Assembly (NCBI GenBank): GCA_965228895.1
Contig: OZ245842.1
Span: 4,192,001-4,256,000, forward strand
Length of the DNA: 64,000 nucleotides
Source of the DNA: Alphaproteobacteria bacterium
GTDB taxonomy: Bacteria > Pseudomonadota > Alphaproteobacteria > SP197
Direction of reading: 5' to 3'
Position numbers and translations under genes: made by a program. Each line of letters begins with the position of its first letter. Within the stretch, counting starts at the first letter, position 1. The notes under the pieces are model-generated. The model was not told where the DNA came from. It worked only from the letters and a program-made list of their open reading frames with translations, and searched no databases. Shown in pieces: positions 21,618 to 61,297 of the stretch.

Positions 21618-21804
21618 AGTCTGCTGCGAACCTGACGGTGGCGAAACTTCCCTGTTCACAGGTAGATTCTGCATTCATTGCCAGCTTCTGAGATTATCCT
21701 GGCAACGCATGCAGTGTTTTAATCTGCTTAGAGAAATGTTCCCTGTGACACAGAACAGAGAACTATGGGCACCAAGCAGGCTATTCTCTTACCGGGTAAG
21801 GGAA
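21618..21804 (+). repeat. Degenerate copy A of the ~200-250 bp CAGGGAA-rich boundary repeat (no dif-like site)
   Basis: AGTCTGCTGCGAACC...TTCCCTGTTCACAGG...TTCCCTG...GAACAGAGAA aligns with the copies at 45.5 and 59.5 kb. Confidence 0.7.
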
Positions 21805-21809
21805 GCGCG

Positions 21810-22370
21810 GTGAGTGATTCGGCGCGCCTTCGCATGGATGCTCGGGCCAACTGGATACGTGGCGCAGTCTATTTCCTGGCGCCACTCATCATGGCGTTCG
21901 GACCGAATTGGGCTCCTCTGATTCTGGTTTCCGGTGCCATCTATGAAGGCATAGTGCTTGTCAAAAGGCGGACCTCTGTTCCGCAGCGGATTCTGATCCC
22001 GGCCATCATTTTTGCTGCTTTCGTCTTTTGGGCTGCACTATCGGCGTTCTGGTCGCTCACCCCCGCCGAATCAGTTGAAAAAGCGGCGGCGATCCTGGGT
22101 TTAGGCGCTTGCGGATTTCTGCTTTTGGTCGGCGCCGCCAACTGCACCGAAACGCACAAGCGGACCATCGCGCTTTCCATGGCCTTCGGCACCGCGCTGC
22201 TTGCCTTGCAGATTGCCTTCGAAGTTGTAAGCGGTGGCGCCATCGCGCGGTTGCTGCACCCGCCGGATACCGAATTCGGATTGAGTGTGCTGATTCGCCT
22301 GAAGCCGGGAACCAGTGTGCTCGCCATCTTTGTCTGGCCGGCCTTGTCGCGCCTGGTGGCGTCATGGTGA
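21810..22370 (+). pseudogene. O-antigen ligase-like membrane protein, N-terminal fragment only
   Basis: Hydrophobic helices with WAALSAFWS and LKPGTSVLAIFVWPA. Ends abruptly at the junction near 22340. Confidence 0.6.
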
Positions 22371-23098
22371 TCACCGCCGTACCGCTGGCGGGTTTCATGC
22401 CCAACATCCTGCGCAAACTGCTGGCGCTGCGCCTGATACGCCCGGACGAGGACTTCGACGCCACGACCGAGCGGTTGCTGGCCGCGTTTTCGCCGCATCT
22501 TGCGACCATCAACGGCATGACCCGCAGCCATCGGGACTGGGTCCACGACTGCATGATGAACCCGCACTATCTCCATGTCGCCCTGCCGTTCGACACCCTG
22601 CTGGATGCCATGGGCGACGGCATGGAGGTGCTGGCGACATCGCCCCGCTTTGCGCCGGACTGGCGCTGGTTCAAATCCATGACCGGCGCCGGACGTTCGT
22701 TCAACGATCACCTCCTGGCCGGCGAGCTGGCAGATCTGCACAACTTCATGGACTGTCGCAAGGTCTTGCCCAGACGCCAGCCCGACGACAACACGGCCCT
22801 GGCGCTTGCCCTTCGCGACGGCTACCGGGCCGCCCTTACCTGGCAGGACGCCCATGGTGGCGATGATGCCGACGCCCTTGCCGCAGCCGGCGCCTCAGTC
22901 TCCGGCTGCCTCCAGGCGCTCACCGAAGCGTTCGCGACGATCGATCCAGCCACCGCCGCGGCCTTTAAGGAACTGCAGGAGTTATGGGAAAGCCCGGACG
23001 TCACGGCGCAGGACGTCGCGTCCCTCGACCTGTTCGCTCAGTTGTTCGGCCGCGAGACCGTCTACGTGTCGCTGACCCGCACCGCCGACCATGGCTGA
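22334..23098 (+). pseudogene. Class I SAM methyltransferase, C-terminal fragment
   Basis: Begins at LAGLVAPGGVMVIT (late methyltransferase motif) and lacks the SAM-binding motif I. Its stop overlaps the next gene. Confidence 0.6.
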
Positions 23099-24032
23099 CC
23101 GCGGCCACGTGACGACGCGCTTGAGTGTCGTCACGTCGGTTCTTAACGGCGAACCCTTTATTGCCGACATGCTGGCATCGGTGCCGCCTCATGATGCCGT
23201 CGAGCATATCGCCATTGACGCCGGTTCGACCGACGGCACGGTCGAGCGGCTGCGGCGGACGCCATCGGTCAGGCTGCTCGAACGTCCCGGCGCCAGCCTC
23301 TACCAGGCGTGGAACGAAGCCATCGATCTGGCCAGCGGCGATAGCCTGCTGTTTCTCAACGCCGATGACCGGCTGCAGCCCGCCGGCATCGACGCGGTGC
23401 TGGACGCGCTGGCCGCCGATCCTCAGGCCGACATTGTGCAAGCCGGCGCAGAGGCTTTTGCCGCCGACCCCAACGAGGCCGGTAACGAGCGTCTGGTCAT
23501 GCGCTATCCCGAACCGCAGGCGGGATTCGATCTGATCGACCTGTCGTTCGGCGCGCCGACGATCAATGCCAAGGTTTTCAGGCGCCGGGTTTTCGAGCGC
23601 TACGGAAGATTCGACGACCGCTATCGGCTGGCGGCCGACCGGGCATTTCTGCTGCGCATGGCGTTGTCCGCTTCGCCACCGCGCTGCGCCGCGATCGCAA
23701 CCGTGCTCTACAACTACCGTATTCATCCCGGCTCGATGACCCTGGACTTTTCCTGGCGCCGCCGGGCGAGCATGGCGCGTGAGCACAGGCAGATTGCCGA
23801 CGCCCTCATCGCGCGCGATATGGTGGCGCCCGACATCGCCGCCACCTTATCGGCGTGGCGCGCACGCGAAGCCATCGCAGAGGTCGCAAGTGAGCTGGCC
23901 CAGGCTCACGTTACAGCCGTCTTCGAACCACTTGGCGCCTTGGCGCGCAGCTTTCCGGCCGCGCTTGTCGCGCTCGGCAGGGCGCGACGTTTGCGCCGGT
24001 GCTGGCTGAACCGCGTGGAGCAGCTTGCGTGA
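23091..24032 (+). CDS. Glycosyltransferase family 2
   Basis: LSVVTSVLNG, IDAGSTDGT, LFLNADD, FDDRYRLAAD. Confidence 0.9.
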   Translation: MADRGHVTTRLSVVTSVLNGEPFIADMLASVPPHDAVEHIAIDAGSTDGTVERLRRTPSVRLLERPGASLYQAWNEAIDLASGDSLLFLNADDRLQPAGIDAVLDALAADPQADIVQAGAEAFAADPNEAGNERLVMRYPEPQAGFDLIDLSFGAPTINAKVFRRRVFERYGRFDDRYRLAADRAFLLRMALSASPPRCAAIATVLYNYRIHPGSMTLDFSWRRRASMAREHRQIADALIARDMVAPDIAATLSAWRAREAIAEVASELAQAHVTAVFEPLGALARSFPAALVALGRARRLRRCWLNRVEQLA

Positions 24033-32333: not shown

Positions 32334-32361
32334 AAATCCCATAATCTGCATTATGGGAAAT
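32334..32361 (+). other. dif/XerCD-like recombination site (copy B)
   Basis: AAATCCCATAA-TCTGCA-TTATGGGAAAT. The right arm matches the E. coli XerD arm TTATGTTAAAT at 9/11. Confidence 0.65.
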
Positions 32362-32482
32362 GGTGGTGCGGGCAGTTCCCCAAATTCCGAGTCACTTGTT
32401 CTAGCTCTCAAGGTCTCTTCAGTTAATCAACAGCAGAGCCCCTACGCGACGGGGAAGGGAACTTTTTCTACGGAACGGGAAA
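32334..32482 (+). repeat. Internally deleted copy B of the boundary repeat
   Basis: CATAATCTGCATTATGGGAAATGGTGGTGCGGGCAGT is nearly identical to 45514-45550, followed by degenerate AGGGAA/ACGGGAA units. Confidence 0.7.
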
Positions 32483-32748
32483 TCACCATGAACATCATGG
32501 CAATGCAACTTGGCGATAGCCAGATAGATTTGATCTATTCTCCGTCGCGATTGTGAACGATACGGGGATTGGTTGACGGACCCAGACGGTCTGCGAACTC
32601 GATAGTATGAGGCGCCCTGGCAAACTCATCATGAGTATCGGATGCGAGGTGATGTGAATAAGGCGGAGTGTTGTGAGGCCCAGGCGTCTTCGCTAAAAGC
32701 GCGCGTAAAGTTTCGCGCCACGCACTCGAGTCTGCGTCAAAGCCCGTT

Positions 32749-34083
32749 CTAATCCCGAAATGATCGGCTCAGTCCTGCGACAAGGGGATCAAGCATATAG
32801 GCGAGCGCCGTCTGCTCGCCGGTAAGGATCATGACTTCCGCTGGCATGCCCGGCATCAGGTCGACGTCGCCCAGTTTTTCGAGTTCGTTTTGAGCAATCC
32901 TGACGCGCGCCTCGTAATAAGGTTCCCCCGTTTGCTGATCCGTCAGCCGGTCGGCGGACAGGCCGATGACCTCGCCGTGAAGAACAGGCGTCTCGCGTTG
33001 GTTTAGGCCGGAAAATCTGACCTCGGCGTTTAGGCCGATTGACGTGTTCTCGATATCATCGGGCCGCACGCGTGCCTTCACGATCAATGCGTCGCCGGCA
33101 GGCACAATGTTCATGATCGGCTCGCTTGGCTTGATGACGCCACCAACGGTATGGGCGTTCATGCCAAGCACCGTTCCGTCTTCCGGCGCGACGATGTCAA
33201 CGCGCTCGAACTGATCCGCCGCCGCCACCCGACGCTGCTCCAGATCGAAGATCTCCGCTTGAACGTCGCGCAACTCGGCGACAACCTGCTCTTGAAAACC
33301 CTTCTCAAGCTGAATGATCTGCAGTTCGGACTCCCCGATCGCGGTTCTGGCGCGCGCGATGGCCGCCAGATCCTCACCGCGTTCACCGCGCAGGCGTTCG
33401 GACTCGCGTTCCAGCGACAGGATACGCGACCGGGTCACATACCCTTCTTCATAAAGCGCGCGCAGACCCTCCAGTTCATCTTCGATCAGCACGATCTGTT
33501 CATTGCTGGCGGATTGCTGAACCTCCAGGCCGCCGATCTCGTCGTGAAGCTGTTCGATGCGTTGACGCAGAATCGCGGCCTCGCCGCTCAGGTTGGCGCG
33601 CCGGGCCTGGAAAAGAAGCTCCTGGCCGTCAAGGATCGTACCGACATCGGGGTCGCTGTCACGAACGTCCAGCAGGTCTTTGGGGAAGGTGATGGTCTCA
33701 AGGCCATCGCGTTCAGCGAGCAGGCGCGCCTCCGTCGCCTGCGCCAGATTGAGCTGGCTGTCGATAATCTGCAGCGAAGCTTCGGACCGCGTAGCGTCGA
33801 GTCTGAGGACGACGTCGCCCTGTTCGACGTGATCGCCGTCGCTCACCAGGATCTCATCGACGATGCCGCCTTCCAGGTGTTGGATGGTTCGCCAGTTGCT
33901 GTTGACCGCGATGACGCCAGGTGCGATCGCGGCGCTGCTCAGCTCGGCCGTTGCCGCCCATGTACCTAAACCGCCGAACATCGCCAGAACGATGACGATG
34001 CCGGTGACAGCGATCGGTTTTATGTGGACCTTCGGCTCGGACGGTGTCGCGCCACCGTGGGCGAAGGCAAGTGCCTTGTTCAT
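32749..34083 (-). CDS. Type I secretion membrane fusion protein (HlyD/PrtE family)
   Basis: N-terminal TM, IQHLEGGIV, IVAPEDGTV, LMPGMPAEV. Confidence 0.93.
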   Translation of the reverse strand: MNKALAFAHGGATPSEPKVHIKPIAVTGIVIVLAMFGGLGTWAATAELSSAAIAPGVIAVNSNWRTIQHLEGGIVDEILVSDGDHVEQGDVVLRLDATRSEASLQIIDSQLNLAQATEARLLAERDGLETITFPKDLLDVRDSDPDVGTILDGQELLFQARRANLSGEAAILRQRIEQLHDEIGGLEVQQSASNEQIVLIEDELEGLRALYEEGYVTRSRILSLERESERLRGERGEDLAAIARARTAIGESELQIIQLEKGFQEQVVAELRDVQAEIFDLEQRRVAAADQFERVDIVAPEDGTVLGMNAHTVGGVIKPSEPIMNIVPAGDALIVKARVRPDDIENTSIGLNAEVRFSGLNQRETPVLHGEVIGLSADRLTDQQTGEPYYEARVRIAQNELEKLGDVDLMPGMPAEVMILTGEQTALAYMLDPLVAGLSRSFRD

Positions 34084-35789: not shown

Positions 35790-35931
35790 ACGATCTCTCT
35801 TTCGTCTTCATCGTGTCGACGACGGATCCCCACGCGCCATCGACTGTTTGAGTTTTCTGGATAAGGCCTTGGTCACACCAACGGACGCGCGGGCATCACA
35901 TCGTGACACCCGCGCAGCCGTCGAAACCAAA

Positions 35932-40539: not shown

Positions 40540-40572
40540 TTCTCACATCTCCTCTTCGTTCGTCTGGTACGG

Positions 40573-44710: not shown

Positions 44711-44713
44711 TCC

Positions 44714-45502: not shown

Positions 45503-45507
45503 GTGTT

Positions 45508-45535
45508 CGGCCGCATAATCTGCATTATGGAAAAT
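45508..45535 (+). other. dif/XerCD-like recombination site (copy C)
   Basis: CGGCCGCATAA-TCTGCA-TTATGGAAAAT versus E. coli dif GGTGCGCATAA-TGTATA-TTATGTTAAAT: arms match 8/11 and 9/11. Confidence 0.75.
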
Positions 45536-46946: not shown

Positions 46947-46963
46947 CTGTGTTGAGCGGTGTC

Positions 46964-49644: not shown

Positions 49645-49653
49645 ATACCGCTC

Positions 49654-50424
49654 CTAGTCCTTGACCGAAAAACCGCCATCGACGGCGATGGACGCGCCCG
49701 TGATGTAGTCGGATGCCGCGCTCGCCAGGAACACGGCCGTTCCCGCCAGATCGTCCGGCTCGCCCCAACGGCCGGCCGGCGTGCGTGCGCTGATCGCCTT
49801 TTCTTTCTCCGGGAACTGTTCGAGATAAGAGCCGGTCAACTCGGTCACGAACCAGCCCGGCAGGATGGCGTTGACCTGGATGTTGTCCTTGGCCCAGGCA
49901 ATCGCACAGACCTTGGTGAACTGGACCAGGCCGCCTTTGCTGGTGGCGTAGGCGCTGTCGTTGGCGCCGCCAAAGATCGCGTACATTGACGCGATATTGA
50001 TGACCTTGCCGCCGCCGGCAGCCTTCATCTGCGGATGAACCGCCTTCGACAGCATGAAAGCGCCCTTGACGTTCGTATCCATCACCCGGTCCCACTCGTC
50101 ATCGGGCGTTTCCTCAGGCGCGAAGCGACACGAAGTGCCGGAGTTGTTGACCAGGATGTGGATCCCCTGCATCGCGTCGGCAGCGGCCGAGACCGCCGCC
50201 GCGATGGACTCCGATGACGCGACATCACAGTCGACCGCCATGGCGCGGCGCCCGGCGCCTTCAATCTCGGCTACTGCCTCGGCGGCCTTCGTCTGATCAC
50301 GGCAGGCGATGACGATATCCGCGCCGGCCCTGGCCATGCCGACCGCCATGCCGAGGCCAAGCCCCCGGTTACCGCCGCTGATCATCGCTACCCTGCCGCT
50401 AAGGTCGAAGGGGTTGTCACTCAT
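49654..50424 (-). CDS. Short-chain dehydrogenase/reductase (KduD-like)
   Basis: SGGNRGLG, NNSG, YATSK, VNAILPGW, VDGG. ATG overlaps the betA stop. Confidence 0.92.
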   Translation of the reverse strand: MSDNPFDLSGRVAMISGGNRGLGLGMAVGMARAGADIVIACRDQTKAAEAVAEIEGAGRRAMAVDCDVASSESIAAAVSAAADAMQGIHILVNNSGTSCRFAPEETPDDEWDRVMDTNVKGAFMLSKAVHPQMKAAGGGKVINIASMYAIFGGANDSAYATSKGGLVQFTKVCAIAWAKDNIQVNAILPGWFVTELTGSYLEQFPEKEKAISARTPAGRWGEPDDLAGTAVFLASAASDYITGASIAVDGGFSVKD

Positions 50425-52151
50425 GCCTGTCTCTCCGCGTCGCTGACGCGCGTAGCTTCGTCGTGGGGTCGCTGCAAGGTGCCCGGACGCTGTGTGGTGT
50501 CCCAGTTGTCCGCATAACCCACCGCCGCATTCGATGGCGGCAGCGGATCGCGTCCCAGGATCATGTCCGAGGCCTTTTCGCCGATCATGATCGTCGGCGC
50601 ATTGAGATTGCCGTTGGTGATGACCGGCATGATCGACGAGTCGACGACCCGCAAGCCGCCGATGCCGTGTACCCGCAGTTGCGAGTCGAGCACCGCGTCC
50701 TTTCCCGTACCCATCGGACAAGTGCAGCTGGGGTGGTAAGCGGTTTCCGCATGATCTGCGGTCCACCTATCCAGCGCCTCGTCGCTCACCACGTCCGCGC
50801 CGGGCAAAACCTCCTTGTCCCGATAGGCATCAAAGGCTGGTTGCGCGAAGATCTCGCGCGTCAAACGGATGGCGCGGCGGAAGGTGATGCGGTCTTCTTC
50901 CTCGGCAAGATAGTTAAACCGTATGTGCGGCTTGTCGGCGGGCTCTGCCGAACGCAACCAGACCCGGCCACGGCTCTTGGGTTTGGTCGGGCTGAGATGC
51001 GCCTGATAGCCATGGCCCTTGAACTTCGACGACCCATCGAACCCCATGGCAACCGGGATGAAGTGATACTGGATATCGGGGAACGACAGCCCTGCGCGGC
51101 TGCGGATGTATCCGTTCGCCTCGAAGTGGTTGGTCGCGCCCAGGCCATCGTGAAACATCAACCAGCGCAAGCCGACCAAGAGCTTGCCGATCGGATTCAG
51201 CCTGCTGTTCAGCGTGACCGGCTTCGTGCAGGAGACCTGGTACCAGAGCTCAAGATGATCCTGCAGGTTGCCCCCGACGCCGGGCAGGTCGTGCACAGGC
51301 TCGATCCCGTTTTCCATCAGGTGGGCGGCCTCGCCGATACCCGAGAGCATCAGGAGTTTCGGTGAGTTGATGGGCCCCGCCGACAAGATGACTTCGCGGC
51401 GGGCGAAGGCACGCTTGACCACGCCGCCCTGCTCGTACTCGACGCCGCTGGCGCGCCTGCCCTCCGTCAAGACGCGCCGGGTCAACGCATGCAAGACGAC
51501 GGTAAGGTTGGTGCGAGTCCTGGCGGGTTTGAGATAGGCATTCGCGGTCGACCAGCGCCGGCCGTCCTTGACCGTCATGTCCATGCGCCCGAAACCTTCC
51601 TGGCGCCATCCGTTGACGTCATCGGATCGCGGATAGCCCGCTTCCACCCCAGCCTCGACCAAGGCGCGGTAAAGCGGGTTCGCCATGTTGCTGCCGTTGC
51701 AGGTGTGGAGCGGTCCGTCGCTGCCCCGATAGTCGTCACCGCCGAAGGCCGAGGTCTCGGCGCGCCGGAAGTAAGGCAGGCAGTGACGGTAACCCCAGCC
51801 TTCGTTGCCAAGCGCCTCCCACTCATCAAAGTCGCCGGCATGCCCGCGCACGTAACACATGCCGTTGATCGATGATGTGCCGCCGATGACCTTGCCGCGC
51901 GCCTGATGGATCTGTCGGCCATTGAGTCCCGGCTCCGGCTCGGTCATGAAACCCCAGTCGAAGCGCGGTTTCGTCATTGGGATAGCGCAGGCTGCCGGCA
52001 TCTGGATAACCACGCTGTCATCCCGACCGCCATATTCCAGCACCAGGACGCTGTTGCCGCTGTTCTCGCTGAGCCGCGCGGCCAGCACGGCACCGGCCGA
52101 ACCGGCACCGATAACGATGAAGTCGTATGTCTGGGTTTCCGTCGCCGTCAC
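50421..52151 (-). CDS. betA: Choline dehydrogenase-like GMC oxidoreductase
   Basis: IGAGSAG, RGKVIGGTSSING, QEGFG.MD.TV..GRRWS, TNHFE, ETAYHPSCTC, NGNLNAPTIMIGEK. Start at 52151 or 52166. Confidence 0.85.
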   Translation of the reverse strand: MTATETQTYDFIVIGAGSAGAVLAARLSENSGNSVLVLEYGGRDDSVVIQMPAACAIPMTKPRFDWGFMTEPEPGLNGRQIHQARGKVIGGTSSINGMCYVRGHAGDFDEWEALGNEGWGYRHCLPYFRRAETSAFGGDDYRGSDGPLHTCNGSNMANPLYRALVEAGVEAGYPRSDDVNGWRQEGFGRMDMTVKDGRRWSTANAYLKPARTRTNLTVVLHALTRRVLTEGRRASGVEYEQGGVVKRAFARREVILSAGPINSPKLLMLSGIGEAAHLMENGIEPVHDLPGVGGNLQDHLELWYQVSCTKPVTLNSRLNPIGKLLVGLRWLMFHDGLGATNHFEANGYIRSRAGLSFPDIQYHFIPVAMGFDGSSKFKGHGYQAHLSPTKPKSRGRVWLRSAEPADKPHIRFNYLAEEEDRITFRRAIRLTREIFAQPAFDAYRDKEVLPGADVVSDEALDRWTADHAETAYHPSCTCPMGTGKDAVLDSQLRVHGIGGLRVVDSSIMPVITNGNLNAPTIMIGEKASDMILGRDPLPPSNAAVGYADNWDTTQRPGTLQRPHDEATRVSDAERQA

Positions 52152-52185
52152 GACAGAAACCCACATGTCGAACCGCGCACGGCGG

Positions 52186-53037
52186 TCATGGCGATGGCCG
52201 GGGATCGCGGACGACCGCGCGGTGCATGCGGCGCAGGAAACCCTTGCCGTGCAGCTTGGCTTCAAGGTCGTCATCAAGCGCCTCGTGCACCGTTGCGCGA
52301 TTGTCCCACATGACAATCGTGTCGGGCTGCCAGCGAATACGGCAAGTCAGTTCGTTGCGCGTGGCGTGGCCGTTCAGGAAGTTCAGCAACGCCGCACTTT
52401 CCTCGCGCGTCATGCCTTCAATCTCGCGCGCATAGTAGGGGCTGATCGACAGCAACCGCGCGCCGCTCTCCGGATGAACACCGGCGAGCGGATGGCGTGC
52501 GACCTCGCGTGGCTTGTCGAGATCCTTGAACCCCATACCGCCGAACGGCGTCGGATCGGGCGGCCACGACTCGTGCACGGCGACTAATCCCTTGAGCAGA
52601 TCGCGCATGCTTTCGGAAAGCGTCAGCCAAGCATTGGTCAGACTGGCAAAGCAGGTATCGCCGCCGACAGCCGGGACATCCTTGCCGTGCAGAAAGGTTC
52701 CCATGGGCGGGCGTGCGCGGAACGACATGTCCATATGCCAGCCGCTGCCAAAGGCCTGCACGTCATCGGGCAGCTTCAGGATCTCGGTGAGTTCCGGCAC
52801 GCCCTCGACGCTGGTTGCGTAAGGATAGTCCTCGATCTCACCGAACCGGCGCACGAAGGCCAGAAACTGCTGCGGGCTGATCGGCTGGTCACGGATAGCG
52901 AGCACGCCAAAGCGGACCCAGGCTGCCCTTAGCGCATCAAAGCTGGCCTCACTAAGCGGCTCGGAAAGATCGAGACCAAACACCTCCGCCCCCAATGCGG
53001 TCGCCAGCGGCCGCAACTCAAAGGAGTTCTGCGTCAT
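52186..53037 (-). CDS. TauD/TfdA family Fe(II)/2OG dioxygenase
   Basis: LGAEV.GLDL, WHMD, GGDT.FA, HPESG, WDNRATVH. Confidence 0.92.
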   Translation of the reverse strand: MTQNSFELRPLATALGAEVFGLDLSEPLSEASFDALRAAWVRFGVLAIRDQPISPQQFLAFVRRFGEIEDYPYATSVEGVPELTEILKLPDDVQAFGSGWHMDMSFRARPPMGTFLHGKDVPAVGGDTCFASLTNAWLTLSESMRDLLKGLVAVHESWPPDPTPFGGMGFKDLDKPREVARHPLAGVHPESGARLLSISPYYAREIEGMTREESAALLNFLNGHATRNELTCRIRWQPDTIVMWDNRATVHEALDDDLEAKLHGKGFLRRMHRAVVRDPRPSP

Positions 53038-53071
53038 GTCGTCTGCCCCCCTCTCCGTGGCCAACAAGAAG

Positions 53072-54322
53072 TCATGCCGCCGTCTCCATACGCAGCCTGA
53101 TGTGCCCGGCAAGATGGGCGGGGTCGTCGCCGATCCCGTAGAAACCGCCAGATGCGAAGGTGTGGAGCCAGTGTTGACCGCAAAAGTAGAGACCCGGCAG
53201 ATCACTCACACCGCGCTGCTGGCGCGGAAACCCGCGTCTGTCGAGGACGGGTTCGTGAATCCAGTCGAAATCGCAGTTGAATCCCGTCGCCCAGATGATC
53301 GAGGTGATGCCGGCGGCCGCCAGATCGATCCGCTCGGTTTCCGCGTAGCCTGAGCCTTCGCAAGGCTGGCCCTCATCAGTATTGTCCGCATTGACCTCGG
53401 GTACATCAAGACCATGTTCGCGGACGAAACCGTCGACTTTCTGCTTAAAGTCGACGGCAAAGGCATCGGACTCGGCAATCCGCTGATTGAGGTCCGAACC
53501 GAATAGTGCCACGCCGTCTTCAACACCATTAAGCCGCCCGGTGAGCGCCACGCCACGTGCGGCAAGAGAATGCAGGTTGACACCATGCCGGTCGCGCGCA
53601 CCGGTCAGCATCATGCTGGCGGCGTATCGTTCCTCATGGGTGACCGGATTGACCGGCGTCGTCAGCCAACCCATGTCGACCATCCAGGCAAAGGCATCTC
53701 GTCCGCGATAGACCCGAGGAATTCGGTTACCGGCGCCGACCGCCAAAAAAACCTCACGACCTGCCTCGATAAAGTCCTCGCAAATCTGCACACCCGTCAT
53801 GGACGAACCGACGATCAGTGCCGCACCGCCGGGCAGCCCCGACGGGTTCTTGTATGTGTAGGGATCCAACTGCATGACATCGCCGGAAGCCGCCGTTGCA
53901 AAGCCGGGCACGTTGGGCCGGTGAAAGAAGCCGGTGGCCACGATGACATTGCGGGCCTGCAACGTGCCGCTGCTGGTTTCCACGCGCCAGCCATCGCCAC
54001 TGCGCCGCAGATCGGTCACCTCAACGCCATGCCGGATCGGCGGGCGGACCATCGCGCAGAAATCGTTGAGGTAGCCGACAACTTCATCACCCGTCAGAAA
54101 GGCGTCGGGCTCATCGCCGTCATAGGCAAAGTCGGGAAGGCGCAGAAACCAATTCGGCGTGACAAGCGTGAAGCTGTCCCAGCGTTCATGGCTCCATGCG
54201 TGACCGACCTGGTCTTCTCGTTCCAGGACGACATGTTCCATGCCGTACTGGGCGAGCCGATAGCTGACCGAGAGTCCGGCCTGGCTGCCGCCGATGACAA
54301 CGATGTCGTGCCGTTCACTCAC
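53072..54322 (-). CDS. Flavin-containing monooxygenase-like oxidoreductase
   Basis: IGGSQAGL, RWDSFTLVTPNW, VATG, VGSSMTG.QI, WATGF, GLYF.G. Confidence 0.85.
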   Translation of the reverse strand: MSERHDIVVIGGSQAGLSVSYRLAQYGMEHVVLEREDQVGHAWSHERWDSFTLVTPNWFLRLPDFAYDGDEPDAFLTGDEVVGYLNDFCAMVRPPIRHGVEVTDLRRSGDGWRVETSSGTLQARNVIVATGFFHRPNVPGFATAASGDVMQLDPYTYKNPSGLPGGAALIVGSSMTGVQICEDFIEAGREVFLAVGAGNRIPRVYRGRDAFAWMVDMGWLTTPVNPVTHEERYAASMMLTGARDRHGVNLHSLAARGVALTGRLNGVEDGVALFGSDLNQRIAESDAFAVDFKQKVDGFVREHGLDVPEVNADNTDEGQPCEGSGYAETERIDLAAAGITSIIWATGFNCDFDWIHEPVLDRRGFPRQQRGVSDLPGLYFCGQHWLHTFASGGFYGIGDDPAHLAGHIRLRMETAA

Positions 54323-54466
54323 GTTTCATTACCGCCCCGGCGCCCGGTCGTGTAGCGCAACCGCAAAGTAGTCGCTCACGATTCGGCGCCGCTCCATACC
54401 GACATGACTGGAGGTCATCTTTGCCCAAGCACAAACCCAGTAAAAATTCCAAATACTGGGCCGGAT

Positions 54467-55459
54467 CTATGCGATCAGATCATCGTTGGCTGCGGTTGGG
54501 GACAGCGCCAGGGTAGTCGCGACCTCGGATTTCAGCCAATCGCAGAACGCGACGATGTCGGACCTGCCGGCGCGGTCTGCTGGCACCACCATGAAGTGGC
54601 CGCGGTCCCAACGGCAAATCTCGGGAATTGGCCGCACCAGGCTACCTTCGCGCAAGAGGTCACCGGCGCAATGATGCCAGCCTATGGCGACACCCAGGCC
54701 GCGTTGCGCCGCTTGAATAACCATCTGGTAGCTGGTGAAGGTCATGCCGTGGGGCGGCAGTGGCAGTTCGACGTCGAAGTGGCCGAGCCAGACCTTCCAG
54801 TTGATCGGTGTCGGCCACGGATAGCCAATCCACGTCGCATCGTCGAGGTGGAGCAAGGTTGCGTTCAGCAGATCCTTCGGACCGGTCATCGGAGCGTGCT
54901 GGGCAACGTACTCGGAGCTGCACACCGGATAGGCTTCCTCCATGAACAGCAGCTCGGCGTGAAACTGGGGATCGTCTTGATGGCCAACCACGATCGATAC
55001 ATCAAAGTCGTCGACGGTGGGACTGGGATTGCGTTCCAGCGAGACGATATGGACATCGAGCTCGGGGTACTTCTGGCGGAAGGCCGCCATGCGCGGTACG
55101 ACATAGAGGCTCGCCTGGGACGTCAGCATGCCGACTGTCAGCTTGCCGGATTCACGTTGCTGGCGGATTTCCTGCGCTACCAGGCTCATATGGGACAACG
55201 CCATGGAAACCGCTTCCATCAACTTGCGTCCATCGGCGGTCAGGCGAACGGTCCGGTTCTTGCGCTCGAAGAGTCGGACGCCAAGGTCGTCCTCCAGGTT
55301 ACGTACGTGGCGGCTCACGGCCGACTGTGTCAGCAGAAGCTCATCGGCGGCGCGCGTGAAGTTCTGATGCCGCGCGGCAGCTTCAAATGCCCGCAGAGCA
55401 CTCAGCGGCGGCAGTTTGCGGTGGGAAACCATGCCAGCTTGGCTCTTCAATCCCTTCAA
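54467..55459 (-). CDS. LysR family regulator (GcvA/AmpR type)
   Basis: LPPLSALRAFEAAARHQNFTRAADEL.LTQSAVSRHVR.LE. Confidence 0.93.
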   Translation of the reverse strand: MKGLKSQAGMVSHRKLPPLSALRAFEAAARHQNFTRAADELLLTQSAVSRHVRNLEDDLGVRLFERKNRTVRLTADGRKLMEAVSMALSHMSLVAQEIRQQRESGKLTVGMLTSQASLYVVPRMAAFRQKYPELDVHIVSLERNPSPTVDDFDVSIVVGHQDDPQFHAELLFMEEAYPVCSSEYVAQHAPMTGPKDLLNATLLHLDDATWIGYPWPTPINWKVWLGHFDVELPLPPHGMTFTSYQMVIQAAQRGLGVAIGWHHCAGDLLREGSLVRPIPEICRWDRGHFMVVPADRAGRSDIVAFCDWLKSEVATTLALSPTAANDDLIA

Positions 55460-55830
55460 GTGTCGTCGGCGTCGATCGCACGGTTCGGTCCATGCAGATA
55501 AACCAGAATGGTACAGCCTCGCGGCGACTGCGAGGCATGCCGGCTTCCCGCACCGTAACTTACGATACTGCCGGGACCGAACACCCGGCCATCCCCATCG
55601 ACGAGTTCGCCGGCAACAATATAGGAGTCTTCACCGCCCGTATGAATGTGCGGCAACGACTTGGTGCCGGGGTCGAGCCGAACAAGAAACGAGCCCCGCA
55701 CCGCCTGACTATCAAAGTTGATCGGTTTCCAGAAGATGCCTGGAACCGGATCGCCGTAGAGGTCGTAGGGGCGAAAGTCCGCAGTCTCTACAGTAAGGAT
55801 CGTGCGTCCCGGAACGTCGTTGTGGGTCAT
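55456..55830 (-). CDS. ChrR-like cupin protein
   Basis: LVRLDPG..SLPHIHTGGE, SRHASQSPRGC; GGAG RBS. Confidence 0.82.
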   Translation of the reverse strand: MTHNDVPGRTILTVETADFRPYDLYGDPVPGIFWKPINFDSQAVRGSFLVRLDPGTKSLPHIHTGGEDSYIVAGELVDGDGRVFGPGSIVSYGAGSRHASQSPRGCTILVYLHGPNRAIDADDT

Positions 55831-55855
55831 GGTGTTCTCCGTTGCGTCAGGTCTT

Positions 55856-58039
55856 TCACTCCGCGTCGATGCCGTACTCTCTCTTCTTGCGTGCACTCCA
55901 GCTTTGAATAATGCGGTCGGTGGTCATGGCGATGAAGGCCATGCACAACGCCGCGGTAATGCCGACACCAAAACCGCCATCGGCAAGGCTTTGATAGATG
56001 ATTTGGCCAAGACCCTTGGTGCCGACGAGCGCCGTGATCACCAGCATCGCCAATGCGAACAAGACGGTTTGGTTGATACCCAGCATGATTTCCGGCAGCG
56101 CCAGGGGAAGCTGGACACGGAACAGGAGTTGCCTGTCTGTACAACCCATCACGCGGGCCGCTTCCACCGCGTCCGCGTCGACCCGGCGGACACCCAATTC
56201 CGTGTACCGGATACAGGGCACGATCGCGTACATCACAATTGCCAGCAGACCCGCGAAGTCGCCGACCTTGAACAGTACGACCACTGGGATCAGGAAAACG
56301 AAAAGCGGGATCGATTGCAGCGTGTCGTTCAGCGGCCGCACGATGGCGGAAACGCGGTTGCTCAGTGCCGCCCAGACGCCGATCGAAACGCCGAGCAGAA
56401 TACAGACCAACACCGCCGAGCCGCATAAATAGACCGAGATCATCGATCGCATCCAAAAACCGCTCGTCAGCATGAAGGTGAGACAGAAGATCGCAAAAAG
56501 ACCGATCTTCCAGCCGCCCACTTGCCAGGCGAGCGCGACGACAGGCACAAGAACCGCGGGCCAAGGCATCTCGGTCAGACCGACGTAGTAGATCAGCGCG
56601 ACGTAGAGTACCGCTAGCGCGGCCCGCCACGACCACGACCGCGCGGCCCAAGCAGCCGCGGCGGCGGCCAGGGTCGCGTACACAACGATGACCGGTGTTG
56701 TCAGGGCAAAGCCCCATGAGAAGGGACTGACGGCCTTGTTAAAGCCTATCTTGATAGGCAGCATGAAGTAGAAAAGCGTCCAGTTTCGAATGCTGTCGGT
56801 GATCGCGTGATAGTTCGTGTTGATCCACGTGATCGCCGCATCGAGTGGTTGATGGGGCAGCACCGTCCAGGCGGCCGGATAGGTCTGAAGAACCGGGACA
56901 AACATGCTGGCGGCAAGAAGCGGGACGGCGACAGCGATGGTTCCGACCATCACCGGATGACGCCGCCAGAAATCGCCGGACGCGCCGGCGGCAAGTGTGG
57001 TGTCGCCCCTGCGCGAAAAGCCGAGCGTGATACGGTCCATCATCATGGCAACCAGCACGATGGCGAGGCCTGTGAGCAGGCTTTTGCCGAACTCGGCCTG
57101 GCGCATGGTGTAGAGCACCTCCCAGCCAAGATCCTCGCCACTGCCAAGCACAGCGGCGATGACCACCATCGACAGGGTCGCAAGGATCGTCTGGTTGATG
57201 CCCAACATGATGGTCGGCATGGCGGCAGGCAGTTTGACGAGCCAGAGTATCTGCCGGGTTGTCGCACCGGACATGACCGCCGAGTCAACGACATCGTCGG
57301 GCACGCGGCCCAGCCCCAGCATCACGGTGCGCGCCATCGGCGGCATGGCGAACGTCGCCGATGCGATCAGACCCACGGTCGGGCCAAACCCGAACAGCAC
57401 CAGGCAAGGCACCAGGTAGGCAAAGGTCGGTATGGTTTGCATGAAATCGAGCATCGGCTCGATGGCACGGCGTAAGTTCGGACTTCTGTGACCGATGATC
57501 CCGACGACGAGGCCGACAGTGATGGCGAGCGGCAACGCGACACTGACAAGCGCTATGGTTAGCGCCGTCTTCTCCCAAAACCCGGCCACAAGAATGTAGG
57601 TCAGCGCAACCAGGCAGAACACGGCAAGACGCCAGCCGCCCGCAACGTGCGCGGCGGCAACGACGGCGACCATGACCAAGGGCCAGGGCAGCCACAGATA
57701 AAAGTTGCGTAGACCGTAGACCGGCCATTCGAGAGTCCACGAGATCGCCCGGAAGATCGATTTGAAGATGCCGACAAACCAGTCCATGCCAGCATCGAAG
57801 AGGTCGGGGATTGGCAGCCCCTGGCCTTCTTCGAGACGCAGGAGCCACGCGTTGTCGGACGCGAACAGAAAACTTGCGGCAACGATGACGCAGACAGCCA
57901 ACCAAACCAAGCCGCTGCGGCCGACGCCCGCATCTACGCCACCGATCAGGCGGTTATAGAGGCCGCGCGACGTCGCGGCGGCATTCGTGCCCTCGACCAT
58001 CACGGCACGTTGTCCGACGATAGCGGCATAGATCCTCAT
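55856..58039 (-). CDS. Glycine betaine/proline-type ABC permease with two fused ProW domains
   Basis: Two copies of the Q(T/S)IP.F..L.P and IMLGINQT motifs. Confidence 0.9.
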   Translation of the reverse strand: MRIYAAIVGQRAVMVEGTNAAATSRGLYNRLIGGVDAGVGRSGLVWLAVCVIVAASFLFASDNAWLLRLEEGQGLPIPDLFDAGMDWFVGIFKSIFRAISWTLEWPVYGLRNFYLWLPWPLVMVAVVAAAHVAGGWRLAVFCLVALTYILVAGFWEKTALTIALVSVALPLAITVGLVVGIIGHRSPNLRRAIEPMLDFMQTIPTFAYLVPCLVLFGFGPTVGLIASATFAMPPMARTVMLGLGRVPDDVVDSAVMSGATTRQILWLVKLPAAMPTIMLGINQTILATLSMVVIAAVLGSGEDLGWEVLYTMRQAEFGKSLLTGLAIVLVAMMMDRITLGFSRRGDTTLAAGASGDFWRRHPVMVGTIAVAVPLLAASMFVPVLQTYPAAWTVLPHQPLDAAITWINTNYHAITDSIRNWTLFYFMLPIKIGFNKAVSPFSWGFALTTPVIVVYATLAAAAAAWAARSWSWRAALAVLYVALIYYVGLTEMPWPAVLVPVVALAWQVGGWKIGLFAIFCLTFMLTSGFWMRSMISVYLCGSAVLVCILLGVSIGVWAALSNRVSAIVRPLNDTLQSIPLFVFLIPVVVLFKVGDFAGLLAIVMYAIVPCIRYTELGVRRVDADAVEAARVMGCTDRQLLFRVQLPLALPEIMLGINQTVLFALAMLVITALVGTKGLGQIIYQSLADGGFGVGITAALCMAFIAMTTDRIIQSWSARKKREYGIDAE

Positions 58040-58075
58040 TGGGGGTTTCCGGGCGCGGGAGCCCGGCGGGGAGAA

Positions 58076-58108
58076 GCGGTCCGGAGCAGCGAAGGCAACC
58101 GGACCGCA
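58076..58108. terminator. GC-rich stem-loop between the SBP and permease genes
   Basis: GCGGTCCGG...CCGGACCGC inverted repeat; no clear U-tract, so possibly an mRNA-stabilising hairpin. Confidence 0.35.
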
Positions 58109-58127
58109 TCATCACCTGTGCCGACGG

Positions 58128-59111
58128 TTAGGGGTTCTTGGCCACCTCGATCCACGCCTGCCAGCGATCGCTGTTGTCGGCCATCCATTGATCGAGGAAA
58201 ACGTCGATGTCCGTGCCGTCAGAGACCGCCTTTTCCATTTGGATTTGGTCATCCGCATTCATGTCGATGTTCTGGAGAATGCGGTATGCCGTGGGCCACT
58301 GGTCGGGCGTTCCCGGCCAGGCGGTGTTCCATATTCTGGCAGCCGACCAGTCGCAGTCATAGGTCGCATCCGGATTGACGCCGCCCGAGGGGTCCTCGTT
58401 GCAGCCATCCCAGTATTCGGGAAGGCCAACCTCGGCCAGCGGGTAGTCGGCCAGGATGCCGTGCGGCGACCAGAACTGGATGAGCAATGGTTCGCCGCGT
58501 TCGTGAGCCGACTTGATCTCGGCAACCAACGCGCCCTCGCTTCCCGCCGGTTGGGATACTAAGGGAAGACCAAGCGCCTCGATGCGCCACTCGTTGGTCA
58601 CGCCCCACTCGATCGGATAGTCGAGCAAGCGTCCGTTCGGAAAGGTCTCGGCGGTCGCGAGCGATTGAGCGCATTCGTGCAGGACCGTGTAGTCCGTGTC
58701 GAGATCCGGACAGGCTTCCAACGCCTTGTCGTTGGCGTACCAAGTCTCGATACCCGAATAGCCGATCTCGCCGGCATCCAGCACCTGACCGCTCTCAAAG
58801 AGCTCCATCCAGCCTTCGCCGATATTGGACGACCACAGACCCAAGGCCATGTGAATGTCACCGTCGGCCACACCCTGGACTTGCGGATAGTAGCCTGCCG
58901 AAATGTACTCGACTTTGTATCCCGCCGCCTCGAGCACCCGGCCAAGTACATGGGCATTGAAGTACTGTCCGGCCGCACCTTGAACCGCAATCTTGATGGG
59001 ATCCTCGCTTTCGGGAACCTCGGCCACCACAGCGGTCCCTGTTCCACCAGCGTACAGTCCGGCTGCAACGGCCGCCGACATAGCCCACTGCTTAATCTCC
59101 AGCGCCTTCAT
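58128..59111 (-). CDS. Glycine betaine-type ABC substrate-binding protein (ProX-like)
   Basis: Signal peptide, ESEDPIK, AGSEGAL, FWSPH, YDCDW; GGGAGGG RBS. Confidence 0.88.
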   Translation of the reverse strand: MKALEIKQWAMSAAVAAGLYAGGTGTAVVAEVPESEDPIKIAVQGAAGQYFNAHVLGRVLEAAGYKVEYISAGYYPQVQGVADGDIHMALGLWSSNIGEGWMELFESGQVLDAGEIGYSGIETWYANDKALEACPDLDTDYTVLHECAQSLATAETFPNGRLLDYPIEWGVTNEWRIEALGLPLVSQPAGSEGALVAEIKSAHERGEPLLIQFWSPHGILADYPLAEVGLPEYWDGCNEDPSGGVNPDATYDCDWSAARIWNTAWPGTPDQWPTAYRILQNIDMNADDQIQMEKAVSDGTDIDVFLDQWMADNSDRWQAWIEVAKNP

Positions 59112-59205
59112 TCGGTCACCCTCCCATTGTTGTGGCGTCATCAGAAGTGTGACTCATCCTAGTGATCGTGATTTGTCGCTCAAAATGAGAAACAGACATG
59201 CTCAT

Positions 59206-59530
59206 TCATGCGCCTGCCTCATGGTTGATATGCTGAGTGGGTTGCGGTTGGGTCTGACCGTCAGGCCTCAAGTGAACCAACGAAGGCATCGTCGCGCCGG
59301 CAGTGACCTCGCCCATCAAACCGCGCCAGGCCCGACGCCGCAGATCCAGGCTGAGCATTATGGTTAGCGCGACAGAGGACCGCTTTGCCCCACGAAGCAA
59401 TGGCAATACGAGAGTGTGTGGCTAGTGCCAAACCCTTCCTTTGCCCAGCCGTTTCGCCGTCGGTGTCGAGAGAGACGGACACAGCCATCTCTTCTTTTCT
59501 CAGCGCCTACCTTTGGTCCTGAACCTCAAA
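59206..59530 (-). mobile_element. Highly decayed IS1202-like relic
   Basis: 59482-59503 CAGCCATCTCTTCTTTTCTCAG matches the IS end at 45454-45475 at 18/22. Frameshifted DDA/LVHLR fragments lie near 59270-59295. Confidence 0.4.
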
Positions 59531-59534
59531 GCGC

Positions 59535-59562
59535 GAGGGTCATAATCTGCATTATGGAAAGT
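59535..59562 (+). other. dif/XerCD-like recombination site (copy D)
   Basis: GAGGGTCATAA-TCTGCA-TTATGGAAAGT; same spacer as copies B and C. Confidence 0.65.
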
Positions 59563-59747
59563 GGGCGGATAAGGAGAATGGCGGTGCGGGCAGTCTGCTG
59601 CGAACCCGTCTCTGCCGAAATTTCCCTGTTAACAGGGAAATTACAGGGAAATTTTGCAGATACTGGCGGAATCTGAGTTTTTCACCGCAGTTCCTGCCAT
59701 ATTTTCAGTAACTTAGATGAAAATTCGCTACGCATCCGAACAGGGAA
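59535..59747 (+). repeat. Copy D of the boundary repeat, left part (interrupted by IS1111; resumes 61165-61230)
   Basis: GGCGGTGCGGGCAGTCTGCTGCGAACCCGTCTC...TTTCCCTGTTAACAGGGAAATTACAGGGAA is nearly identical to copy C. Confidence 0.85.
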
Positions 59748-59799
59748 TATATGGCCTGCTCCCGGGCTGGAAGAGGGAATTTCGGGAACGGCATCAGGG

Positions 59800-59990
59800 A
59801 AGTCTGCTCGAATATATCCGGCTTTGATATGCGGCGTGGTACCCGCCGCTGCCACGATGGAAATGCGCACATCCGGTGCCTTTAAAATTTACGCGGCCTT
59901 GGTGGCCGTTCGCTGTTCCAGGTTGGCCGGATGCCGATCGACTGTGATGCCATCCTGTCTGGTCCCACTTCGCAGATCAGGTGAGCTCTC
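59800..59990 (-). ncRNA. Putative bridge/seekRNA of the IS1111 element
   Basis: Structured downstream non-coding region (stem CATCCGG...CCGGATG, hairpins CGGCC/GGCCG and GCGGCG/CGCCGC) with segments matching the target. Boundaries are approximate. Confidence 0.6.
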
Positions 59991-60037
59991 TGGCCTCCTT
60001 GTCCCTGTTTATTCGCCTTTGCCTTAATGCCTGACGA

Positions 60038-61087
60038 TCACGCCGATGCTGCTGTCCTCTCGGTCCTGGCAACGGCGAACTCGGTGTAGTGGTCGCCGGC
60101 CGTCAGCACCGCCCAGGCGATGCGCACCAGCTTGTTGGCGAGCGCCACGATGGCGACGTTGCGGTGCCGTCGCTCGAGCACCCCGTTCACCCAAAGGCCC
60201 AGTCGTGTTCGTTTGCCCTCAAGCGAACGCATCGCCGCCCGCGCGCCGTGAATGAACAAGCGTCGCAAGTAGGCATTGCCGTGCTTGGTGATGCCGAGCA
60301 GCTTAGGCTTGCCGCCGGTTGTCACCTGCCGCGGCACCAGGCCCATCCAGGCCGCCAGATCGCGCCCGGACTCGAAAGCCTCCCCTTTGCCGATCGCCGC
60401 CACCAGCGCCGTTGCCGTCAGTGGGCCGATCCCCGGGATCTCGACCAGCCGCCGCGTTGCTTCGTCCTGGCGCGCCAGCATGACGAACTCTGCATCGAGG
60501 TCGGCAACCCGGTCGTCAAGGACCCGCCACTCACCTCGAAGCTCCTCGATCAGCGTCCGGATGCGTTCGCTCAGGCCCACGCTCTCGTCAGCCAGGATCT
60601 CCGGTAACGCCCGCACCAAGTGATACTTGCCCTTCGGCACCATGATGCCGCGCTCCAGCAGAATGCCCCGGATCTGATTGATCAGCGCCGTACGCTGCTG
60701 TACGACCCGCTCGCGCACCCGGTGCAGGGTCTGCAGGTCGAGCTGACCCTGGCTCTTCACTGTCACAAACCTCATCGTCGGACGTAACGCCGCCTCGGCA
60801 ATCGCCTCCGCGTCCCGATCGTCGTTCTTCTGCGACTTCACGAACGGCTTCACATATTGCGGTGCGATCAGCCGCACGTCGTAATCCAGGTCCAGCAGCT
60901 GCCGGCCCACGTAGTGCGCCCCGCAACACGACTCCATCGCTACCGCACATACCGGCAGGGTTGAAAGGACCGGCACCAGACCCGAACGCTTCACACGCCG
61001 TGACATCACCACCTGTCCTTGTTCGTCAAGACCAGCAAGACTGCAAACGCTCTTGCCCAAATCAACGCCCACAATAACAATGCTCAT
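60038..61087 (-). CDS. IS110 family DEDD transposase/recombinase
   Basis: GVDLGK, AMESC, KNDDRDAEAI, IPGIGPLTA, GLVPRQVTTGGK, ALANKLVRIAW. Confidence 0.95.
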   Translation of the reverse strand: MSIVIVGVDLGKSVCSLAGLDEQGQVVMSRRVKRSGLVPVLSTLPVCAVAMESCCGAHYVGRQLLDLDYDVRLIAPQYVKPFVKSQKNDDRDAEAIAEAALRPTMRFVTVKSQGQLDLQTLHRVRERVVQQRTALINQIRGILLERGIMVPKGKYHLVRALPEILADESVGLSERIRTLIEELRGEWRVLDDRVADLDAEFVMLARQDEATRRLVEIPGIGPLTATALVAAIGKGEAFESGRDLAAWMGLVPRQVTTGGKPKLLGITKHGNAYLRRLFIHGARAAMRSLEGKRTRLGLWVNGVLERRHRNVAIVALANKLVRIAWAVLTAGDHYTEFAVARTERTAASA

Positions 61088-61297
61088 CGGTCTGCTCCTC
61101 TCGCTTTGGATCACTCACAAATCCAGAGTACCCCACCAAGGGGTGGGAGCAGGCCATCCCATAAATATTTAGACCGAACAGGGAAATGTTTCCGTGGATC
61201 AGAGAATCGTCGCACGCGCTCAGGGAACGCACCCTTGGCGGGAGCCGGACTGATCTGAACTGTTCTCCTTTCCGTTTTTGAACGAAAGAAGATCGAG

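Follow-up and report, generated by a model that had tools for sequence, protein, structure and literature searches.

Among the described systems closest to the locus treated here are the plasmid-borne pdif modules and the chromosomal dif module island of Acinetobacter (PMC12907356), and the integrative mobile elements exploiting Xer (IMEX), for example the CTX/RS1/TLC arrays at dif1 of Vibrio cholerae (PMC4246890; PMC5357621; PMC9226527); these and the other sources cited are considered to the extent of their available text. Here, a window of 64,000 nucleotides, i.e., bases 4,192,001-4,256,000 of the single 5.53-Mb contig OZ245842.1 of an alphaproteobacterial genome (GCA_965228895.1, hereafter G000), was analyzed, in which 28-bp dif-like sites (cores) and a conserved non-coding repeat of ~250 bp with CAGGGAA boxes delimit unrelated gene modules. 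Judging from the sites and their surroundings, we lean slightly towards a Xer-exploiting module array that occupies two tRNA-anchored islands and in which recombination by the host XerCD is predicted.

With the Acinetobacter dif modules this locus shares unrelated modules that are bounded by 28-bp XerC/XerD-like sites and clustered in a linear array, the lack of a dedicated recombinase and the presence of insertion sequences (IS) of the IS1202 family 5 bp from the XerC arm (PMC10132070). As to the occurrence of the same module in different contexts, modules shared with a sister species have different neighbors in the two genomes, and a contig covering one module in a public sequencing run ends in repeats. 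By contrast, the sites bounding pdif modules are inversely oriented (PMC10132070), whereas all sites are direct here. Moreover, the small resistance modules of Acinetobacter differ from the metabolic, transport and metal operons of 1-35 kb found in this genome, and the present arrays are chromosomal, tRNA-anchored and located in the Hyphomicrobiales, with one spacer common to the cores and with most cores fused to the attP arm of a serine-recombinase island.

The likeness to IMEX consists in the absence of an own integrase, in direct dif-like flanking sites, in tandem arrays formed by repeated integration and in an XerC arm that is less conserved. However, the arrays lie ~1.9 Mb from dif and next to tRNA genes, their modules carry neither phage nor replication genes, a search for a Xaf-like factor was negative, and the spacer differs from that of dif, which would make another array core the partner site. 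The tRNA-targeting serine-recombinase islands and islands of the staphylococcal cassette chromosome (SCC) type are similar with regard to the tRNA 3' end, the tRNA-proximal recombinase, the repeated element end and the fact that most modules lack a recombinase, but the boundary described here carries a dif-like Xer site that is absent from the resident serine-recombinase elements. As in cer and psi, a Xer core is accompanied by ~200 bp of conserved non-coding DNA with repeated motifs; unlike there, this DNA lies on the XerD side, occurs independently of cores in other genomes and is not needed at one in three sites. Arrays of chromosomal integrons, finally, are likewise long and co-oriented, with unrelated cargo between recombination sites, but neither IntI nor attC-type sites are present here and the modules are operon-sized.

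In literature searches, no description of such arrays in Hyphomicrobiales was found. Xer-bounded modules have so far been known essentially from Acinetobacter resistance plasmids and from one chromosomal island reported in 2026, and IMEX are found at dif itself. If active, the arrays would mean that large islands of accessory metabolism in environmental Alphaproteobacteria are also assembled by XerCD, at a distance from the terminus and with a direct-site geometry that permits simple excision, and that a mobile element, namely a tRNA-targeting serine-recombinase island, can switch to exploiting the host recombinase. Furthermore, one site is available here in 18 natural forms, some followed by the repeat and some not, which offers a test bed for FtsK-independent dif-like recombination.

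Dif-like cores, the chromosomal dif and IS1202-family remnants

Scanning of the genome with the 17-mer CATAATCTGCATTATGG at up to four mismatches, combined with a site table, gave 18 cores, fourteen of which are on the minus strand at 345,446-561,859 and four on the plus strand at 4,224,340-4,295,113; a further degenerate copy is located near 535,960. The cores make up two islands, one at 0.345-0.562 Mb by a tRNA-Met gene and one at 4.224-4.295 Mb by a tRNA-Ser gene, and all of them (18/18) are co-oriented within their island. About 18 modules of 1-35 kb with operon-sized cargo lie between them. Three of the cores are in the window, all on the plus strand: core B at 32334-32361 (AAATCCCATAA-TCTGCA-TTATGGGAAAT, in 11-6-11 arrangement), core C at 45508-45535 (CGGCCGCATAA-TCTGCA-TTATGGAAAAT) and core D at 59535-59562 (GAGGGTCATAA-TCTGCA-TTATGGAAAGT). 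An earlier reading of the window, made from its sequence only, had described four repeat copies and had placed cores at 32334, 45508 and 59535, with CATAA-TCTGCA-TTATGG common to the three and identical spacers; copies, positions and motif were all confirmed. The same reading had scored the right arms at 8-9 of 11 positions against an XerD arm, and comparison with the XerD consensus TTATGTTAAAT (PMC10132070) indeed yielded 9, 9 and 8 of 11 for B, C and D. Against the dif arm of the genome itself the values rise to 10, 11 and 10 of 11, and the XerC arm of core B agrees with dif at 9 of 11 positions. The 20-mer CATAATCTGCATTATGGAAA, searched with up to three mismatches, occurs three times in the window, each time on the plus strand, as compared to a mean of 0.00 and a largest count of 0 in 100 dinucleotide shuffles of the window.

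For the location of the chromosomal dif, GC skew was used as had been proposed. In G000, the cumulative skew is lowest at 5.05 Mb and highest at 2.36 Mb, and the best dif candidate, AAGTCGCATAA-TATATA-TTATGGAAAAT, is found at 2,268,582, 88 kb off the maximum. Of 33 family genomes, 10 contain the pattern CATAA-N6-TTATGGAAA, and the other 23 are without an exact match. Each of the eight matching genomes outside the genus possesses exactly one such site, with the spacer TATATA in four of them, and in the complete genomes G009 and G012 the site lies mid-chromosome; the sister species G002 has a TATATA site plus array-type sites. Because of these single-copy sites outside the genus, the TATATA spacers and the mid-chromosome placement, the site at 2,268,582 is identified as the dif of the family. 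In relation to this dif, the XerD arm is identical (11/11) in five of the 18 cores and agrees at no fewer than nine of 11 positions in 16, and the inner XerC-arm motif CATAA is intact in 13. The spacer TCTGCA, present in 15 of the 18, differs from TATATA at four of six positions. Core 463,557 has a degenerate XerD arm (7/11), and the weakest core is that at 4,295,113. The conservation of the spacer in those 15 cores despite 20-40% divergence of their flanks suggests selection on the site.

A second site with both dif arms (AAGTCGCATAA and TTATGGAAAAT) and the spacer GCTACA was observed at 2,598,514-2,598,541 (locus L099), 330 kb from dif and in the same orientation, with the GC-skew maximum in the interval that separates it from dif. 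A very large element integrated by Xer, or else an old co-integrate, could be marked by this site; no second site of this type was found in G002 with the same pattern. The polarity of the cores with respect to replication, minus on one replichore and plus on the other, was considered as a finding in its own right and was discarded, as the orientation of the anchoring tRNA genes explains it sufficiently.

Further evidence comes from IS remnants. "Dif-hunter" elements of the IS1202 family integrate next to dif-like sites, at a distance of 5 bp from the XerC arm and with their left end facing the site, and their ends start with 5'-TGT (PMC10132070, Harmer, Pong and Hall). ISMex6, ISRel10 and ISRel26 target CATAA-N6-TTATGGAA sites in Rhizobiales, and the available text of the same source mentions single dif-like sites only beside ISRel and ISMex elements (PMC10132070). 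When ISMex6 and an Agrobacterium copy were checked directly, the same 5-bp, left-end geometry was seen at their own dif-like sites. Of the 18 cores of G000, four (345,446, 366,749, 427,166 and 4,237,514, the last being core C of the window) have an IS1202-type left end at a distance of exactly 5 bp from their XerC arm. The left end reads TGTAGG.GCAG... in three remnants and starts with AGT in the window copy, the orientation of all four agrees with that of ISMex6 and the Agrobacterium copy, and the 5-bp spacers as well as the XerC arms differ among the four cores.

The ISMex6-like remnant of the window (45115-45502, minus strand) comprises the left terminal repeat and, left of core C, an open reading frame (ORF) of 112 aa (45115-45453, minus strand) matching the N-terminus of the ISNCY transposase model NCBIfam NF033594 (E=5.8e-5). 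By tblastn, this fragment was matched in 1,595 plasmid records, among them an "ISNCY-like element ISMex6 family transposase" and ISNCY transposases of Rhizobium, Agrobacterium and Klebsiella. Neither an intact copy of the IS nor a full-length relative of the fragment was detected in G000, and a search of 5.8 billion proteins for relatives of greater length gave no full-length one. Full-length NF033594 transposases of related genomes were tried as dif-linked elements and rejected, none of the ten loci lying beside a dif-like site. NF033594 is a model for another ISNCY group; what ties the remnants to IS1202 are the tblastn matches and the alignment of the ends. The idea that the repeat itself is the right end of an IS1202-family element was also abandoned: its start loosely resembles the IS1202 terminal repeat, but CAGGGAA boxes are missing from the right end of ISMex6. 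The arms of a family-wide dif, a shared private spacer and IS1202-family targeting at 5 bp together bear out the claim of the sequence-only reading that the 28-mers are real dif derivatives.

Module borders and the origin of the repeat

A comparison of module borders with related genomes had been proposed in the earlier reading, and the borders were found to coincide with the cores in G002, a sister species of the same genus with a backbone that is 80-90% identical. The G002 array on contig C4 has cores at 60,430, 72,295, 85,592, 96,083, 110,059, 122,299 and 139,139, all on the plus strand. Two of its modules are shared with G000 at 84% identity: G002 110,393-122,385 corresponds to G000 463,291-451,292 (cores 110,059/122,299 versus 463,557/451,377), and G002 125,651-138,975 corresponds to G000 396,814-383,520 (cores 122,299/139,139 versus 399,801/383,056). 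The two modules are adjacent in G002 and 51.6 kb apart in G000, where three modules with two further cores lie between them, and four G002 modules have no counterpart in G000. The change in homology between the two genomes takes place at the core: the flank to the left of G002 core 122,299 resembles the junction at 451,377 of G000 (75% as compared to a baseline of ~60%), while the right flank fits the junction at 399,801 better. Moreover, a module tail of 930 bp adjacent to a core belongs to the tRNA-Ser island in G002 and to the tRNA-Met island in G000. The modules between cores B and C and between C and D were not found as blocks in G001 or G002.

Public sequencing runs were examined as assembled contigs (Logan). 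In run X3, a contig of 14,070 nt corresponds to 45579-59648 of the window with 133 differing letters (~99% identity) and ends within the repeats; there is next to no cover at 41000-45000 and past 59676, which is not evidence of absence. A joint from 45596 to 59749, present in X2 and X3, was considered as an excision product and rejected, as it matches the hybrid repeat copy at 451 kb. Joints that go back, from 59636 to 45514 (14,123) and from 45550 to 41000 (X2, one contig, side 37), were treated as artefacts of contig-end alignment; the former, seen in one contig of X2, a source-like run, lies off the position expected for a core-to-core circle junction.

For the repeat, a profile was built from copies C and D and the genome was searched with nhmmer. 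At E<1e-3, 17 loci were obtained: twelve on the minus strand at 345-562 kb, one on the minus strand at 934,784 and four on the plus strand at 4.2136-4.2515 Mb. The repeat directly follows 12 of the 18 cores, six cores stand alone, and the repeat also occurs without a core in other families. It was present in 14 of 61 sampled genomes of the class (G000 counted), which belong to three families, and in G038, G057, G011 and G028, all outside the genus, it lacks the dif-like core. When 185,579 species genomes were scanned for the junction of core and repeat, only one other genome was retrieved, a metagenome-assembled genome of the Hyphomicrobiales. Among PLSDB plasmids there was no match to the 250-bp repeat at E<=1e-6, and Rfam gave no family at gathering scores over the window and none at E<=1 over 45450-45900. 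As had been described, copies C and D have in common the stretch GGTGCGGGCAGT..GCTGCGAACCCGTCTC, the palindrome TTTCCCTGTTAACAGGGAAA and the CAGGGAA boxes.

The genomes in which the repeat occurs without a core point to its origin. In G038, a gene for a large serine recombinase precedes the repeat by ~0.4 kb, the loci L061-L065 have a common upstream sequence, and matches to the Recombinase domain precede four of the eight repeat copies; the same arrangement applies to one of two copies in G028. G000 itself encodes three large serine recombinases that are homologous to one another and to that of G038 (45-52% identity), and each of their genes abuts the 3' end of a tRNA gene, namely tRNA-Met (321,892-321,968), tRNA-Ser(gga) (4,310,749-4,310,838) and tRNA-Ser(cga) (875,546-875,634). 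The former two tRNA genes anchor the two arrays, and tRNA-Ser(cga) anchors a single island of 59.3 kb (875,635-934,915), which has the repeat at 934,784 as its far end and for which G002 possesses the empty site. The three junctions given by this island and its empty site share CCGCCA. The stretch 875,635-934,915 thereby has the features of a tRNA island of a large serine recombinase; at the two arrays, the adjacency of recombinase and tRNA genes alone was seen. From the junctions and the empty site it can be deduced that the first ~35 nt of the repeat are the attP arm mimicking the tRNA 3' end, and we identify the repeat, on these comparisons, as an attP arm that is conserved within a family of large-serine-recombinase islands targeting tRNA genes. 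No resolvase genes were found near single repeat copies in nine other genomes, a result that is uninformative if the recombinase is encoded at the other island end. The complete genome G038 (5.03 Mb, another family) carries its eight repeats at distances of 40-68 kb, five on the plus strand at 4.29-4.50 Mb and three on the minus strand at 0.42, 0.46 and 1.97 Mb, and serine recombinase genes that are nearly identical accompany several copies. The pattern resembles complete islands arranged in tandem arrays, and it is from this island family that the modules of G000 seem to derive.

With respect to the recombinase, the sequence-only reading was right in that no integrase gene is present in the window, but it had missed the large serine recombinase genes at the tRNA end of both islands, which lie outside it. 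These genes raise the question whether large serine recombinases alone, in tandem accretion of the SCC type, have built the arrays, in which case the modules would be decayed members of the island family, crossover would take place between core and repeat at the CCA-end mimic GG/TGG, the core would be no more than the P' arm of each element, and modules without a recombinase would have been moved in trans. The attP character of the repeat as deduced from island 875,635-934,915, the gene arrangement of G038 and G028 and the homologous recombinases at the tRNA ends of both arrays are all in line with this explanation. However, tblastn with five recombinase proteins as queries gave no genes beyond the four already known and neither a relative nor a remnant of this family beside any of the 18 cores, the tRNA junctions of the three resident recombinase elements contain no dif-like sequence, and the repeat does without the core in G038, G057, G011 and G028. 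Nor does the explanation account for a dif arm that is identical at 11 of 11 positions, for the geometry of the 6-bp spacer or for the IS1202-family ends at 5 bp. In addition, the three repeats with a long linker all start with TGGCG and those with a GG linker with TGGTG, i.e., the linker type tracks the repeat subtype, from which it follows that linker and repeat would be inherited together and that the exchanges would lie left of the linker, in or beside the core; across the crossover supposed in the serine-recombinase explanation the two would not be expected to co-vary. We consider it unlikely that these enzymes alone formed the arrays, and they may have contributed to array building. How the core and the repeat became linked is suggested by the last array core of G002, located 2 bp from the CCA end of tRNA-Met, which is the spacing found in core-GG-repeat.

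Proposed host Xer recombination and its weighing

We propose that the host XerC and XerD bind the cores, and that Xer recombination between two direct cores of the same spacer would delete the module between them as a circle carrying one core. The reverse reaction would place such a circle into any core, and modules would be gained, lost and shuffled as units, while the private spacer TCTGCA would prevent recombination between the array and dif. The sequence-only reading had suggested that B-C and C-D would be excised as circles, which is plausible because the sites are direct and their spacers identical. The link between core and repeat most likely arose when a serine-recombinase island integrated at the CCA end of tRNA-Met, near a dif-like core; in that case, the repeat would represent a relic, or else a binding array brought in by the element and co-opted, as opposed to accessory DNA as in cer. 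Binding and catalysis by XerCD as well as the circular intermediates are what we infer from this arrangement. G000 has candidates for the enzymes that would be needed: there are four tyrosine recombinase genes (PF00589), none in or beside the arrays, including one XerD-like gene (TIGR02225, 323.6 bits) and one XerC-like gene (TIGR02224, 318.2 bits); the remaining two lie at a great distance from the arrays, one at ~0.8 kb from a tRNA-Thr gene. An unrelated serine recombinase (LSR4293, 25% identity) starts ~0.9 kb from core 4,295,113 on the opposite strand.

A more far-reaching version would see in the locus a host-Xer cassette platform for whole operons, in which a private dif-like site became fused to an attP arm at a tRNA gene and in which circles can be exchanged at ~18 positions, between both arrays and between strains, in the manner of an integrase-free "super-integron" for metabolic modules of 1-35 kb. 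This version is put forward tentatively, and we would sooner doubt than accept it.

Several observations weigh against host Xer recombination. The XerC arms agree with dif at just 5-9 of 11 positions across the cores; a poorly conserved outer XerC arm is usual for plasmid and IMEX sites. FtsK activation of XerD is not expected ~1.9 Mb from dif, where the arrays lie, and a Xaf-like DUF3653 protein had no match in G000. All four IS1202-family remnants are truncated, old and degenerate, and they speak for past recognition of the sites, not for present activity. The contigs assembled from sequencing runs break at the repeats and no recombination product was seen in them. The large serine recombinases stand at the tRNA end of both islands, with the repeat as the attP arm of their family. 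Finally, the presence and absence of modules in G000 and G002 could also be obtained by homologous deletion between direct repeats of ~100-250 bp and need not reflect insertion.

The last point leads to the possibility that cores and 250-bp repeats are inactive relics and that all variation has been generated by RecA-dependent deletion and by replacement via flanking homology after gene transfer. Such passive repeats would fit with the many degenerate copies (A, B, the copy near 535,960 and core 463,557 with its XerD arm of 7/11), with hybrid repeats such as the 451-kb copy, in which the front of a repeat is joined to an IS110 end as in D, with the truncation of the four IS1202-family remnants and the lack of an intact copy in the genome, and with G000-G002 differences that could all be deletions. 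Nevertheless, six borders consist of a core only, with similarity over ~20-28 bp that is too short for efficient homologous recombination, and yet these cores are co-oriented and placed at module borders. Moreover, inactive relics would not be expected to keep an identical spacer in 15 of 18 cores while their flanks diverge by 20-40%, nor to leave the 930-bp module tail in different tRNA islands in G002 and G000. Taking both sides together, the passive explanation appears improbable to us.

The complete model of the sequence-only reading, in which XerCD cassettes require the CAGGGAA array as accessory-factor DNA of the cer/psi type, has very little to recommend it: the conservation of box number and spacing across families (the palindrome and ~5 more boxes within ~200 bp) is commonly seen in DNA arrays that bind proteins and the repeat directly adjoins 12 of 18 cores, but the array lies on the XerD side, whereas the accessory DNA of cer and psi lies on the XerC side, it occurs without cores in four other genomes, it is missing from six of 18 cores, and it is the attP arm of serine-recombinase islands.

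Repeat copies, cargo and neighboring elements

For the window, genes were called with an own caller based on ORFs and codon usage, and domains were assigned by Pfam. Features that went beyond the earlier reading were the splitting of repeat D by an IS110-family element, the anchoring of the arrays at tRNA genes and the existence of a second, larger array. All four copies of the repeat (the conserved island-end repeat, UR) are on the plus strand. Copy A (21604-21780; nhmmer E=4e-15 and 1.8e-13) is 5'-truncated and, as had been noted, degenerate; neither the core nor the initial part of the repeat is present. Within the tRNA-Ser(gga) island it is the most distal copy, and the backbone shared with G002 ends ~2 kb to its left. 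Copy B (32362-32502), correctly described before as internally deleted, retains the first ~17 nt of UR, followed by the deletion and by weakly retained distal boxes, to which a weak nhmmer match at 32386-32502 (E=0.018) corresponds. Copy C (45536-45799, end approximate) is a full UR with the GG linker, the pseudo-tRNA-3'-end segment TGGTGCGGGCAGTC..GCGAACCCGTCTC, the 20-bp palindrome and ~6 CAGGGAA boxes. In copy D, the first part (59563-59750) has an additional linker of ~17 nt ahead of TGGCGGTGCGGGCAG, and the distal boxes (61158-61234; weak nhmmer match at 61173-61234, E=0.018) lie beyond the IS110 insertion.

The IS110-family element in repeat D (59751-61157, minus strand) has terminal inverted repeats of 13 bp and a transposase gene at 60038-61087 (Pfam DEDD_Tnp_IS110 and Transposase_20), and it is the sole copy in G000. 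Elements of this family in or just past CAGGGAA boxes were observed in two unrelated genomes, here and at the G038 loci L063 and L065, and a remnant of the same IS110 end is fused to the repeat at ~451,300. The CAGGGAA boxes may be a preferred target of IS110-family elements.

The gene content changes at every repeat copy, in agreement with the sequence-only reading. Between A and B, Pfam identified a glycosyltransferase, a transketolase-like protein, SBP5, MlrC and an amidase. The cargo between B and C (32749-45079) comprises HlyD and ABC genes for type I secretion, a 732-aa repeat protein, a multicopper oxidase, an isochorismatase, a urea transporter and a cupin. The gene of the 732-aa protein (35932-38130, minus strand), for which there was no Pfam match, contains 15-nt periodic repeats and three repeats of ~300 nt, and its product, encoded beside HlyD and ABC genes, is probably a repeat-rich type I secretion substrate. 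Between C and D (46101-59111, minus strand), genes were found for HalD-like and MttB proteins, an aminotransferase, SDR, a GMC oxidoreductase, TauD, a flavoprotein, LysR, a cupin and a betaine-type ABC transporter.

Beyond D, the cargo is a copper island. Two IS3-family transposase genes with identical Pfam scores (L033:11094-11969, plus strand, and L034:12318-13193, minus strand; genome 4,267,094-4,289,193) bracket ~21 kb of it, including CDF transporter, thioredoxin-like, SCO1 and multicopper oxidase genes, and this stretch looks like a composite transposon; genes for PCuAC, Cox11 and a P-type ATPase are outside the pair, between D and its first copy. Two RepB-like partition genes and LSR4293 are found beside core 4,295,113 at L034:14955-18189 (genome 4,290,955-4,294,189) and may be a plasmid-derived piece within the island. 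At the other side, just outside the arrays, positions 1-19650 of the window are occupied by a cluster of the nonribosomal-peptide or polyketide type with an AMP-binding/PP-binding protein, an ORF of 2,973 aa (9810-18731), a thioesterase, PhyH and 2OG-Fe(II) oxygenases and an ABC exporter with a cNMP-binding domain.

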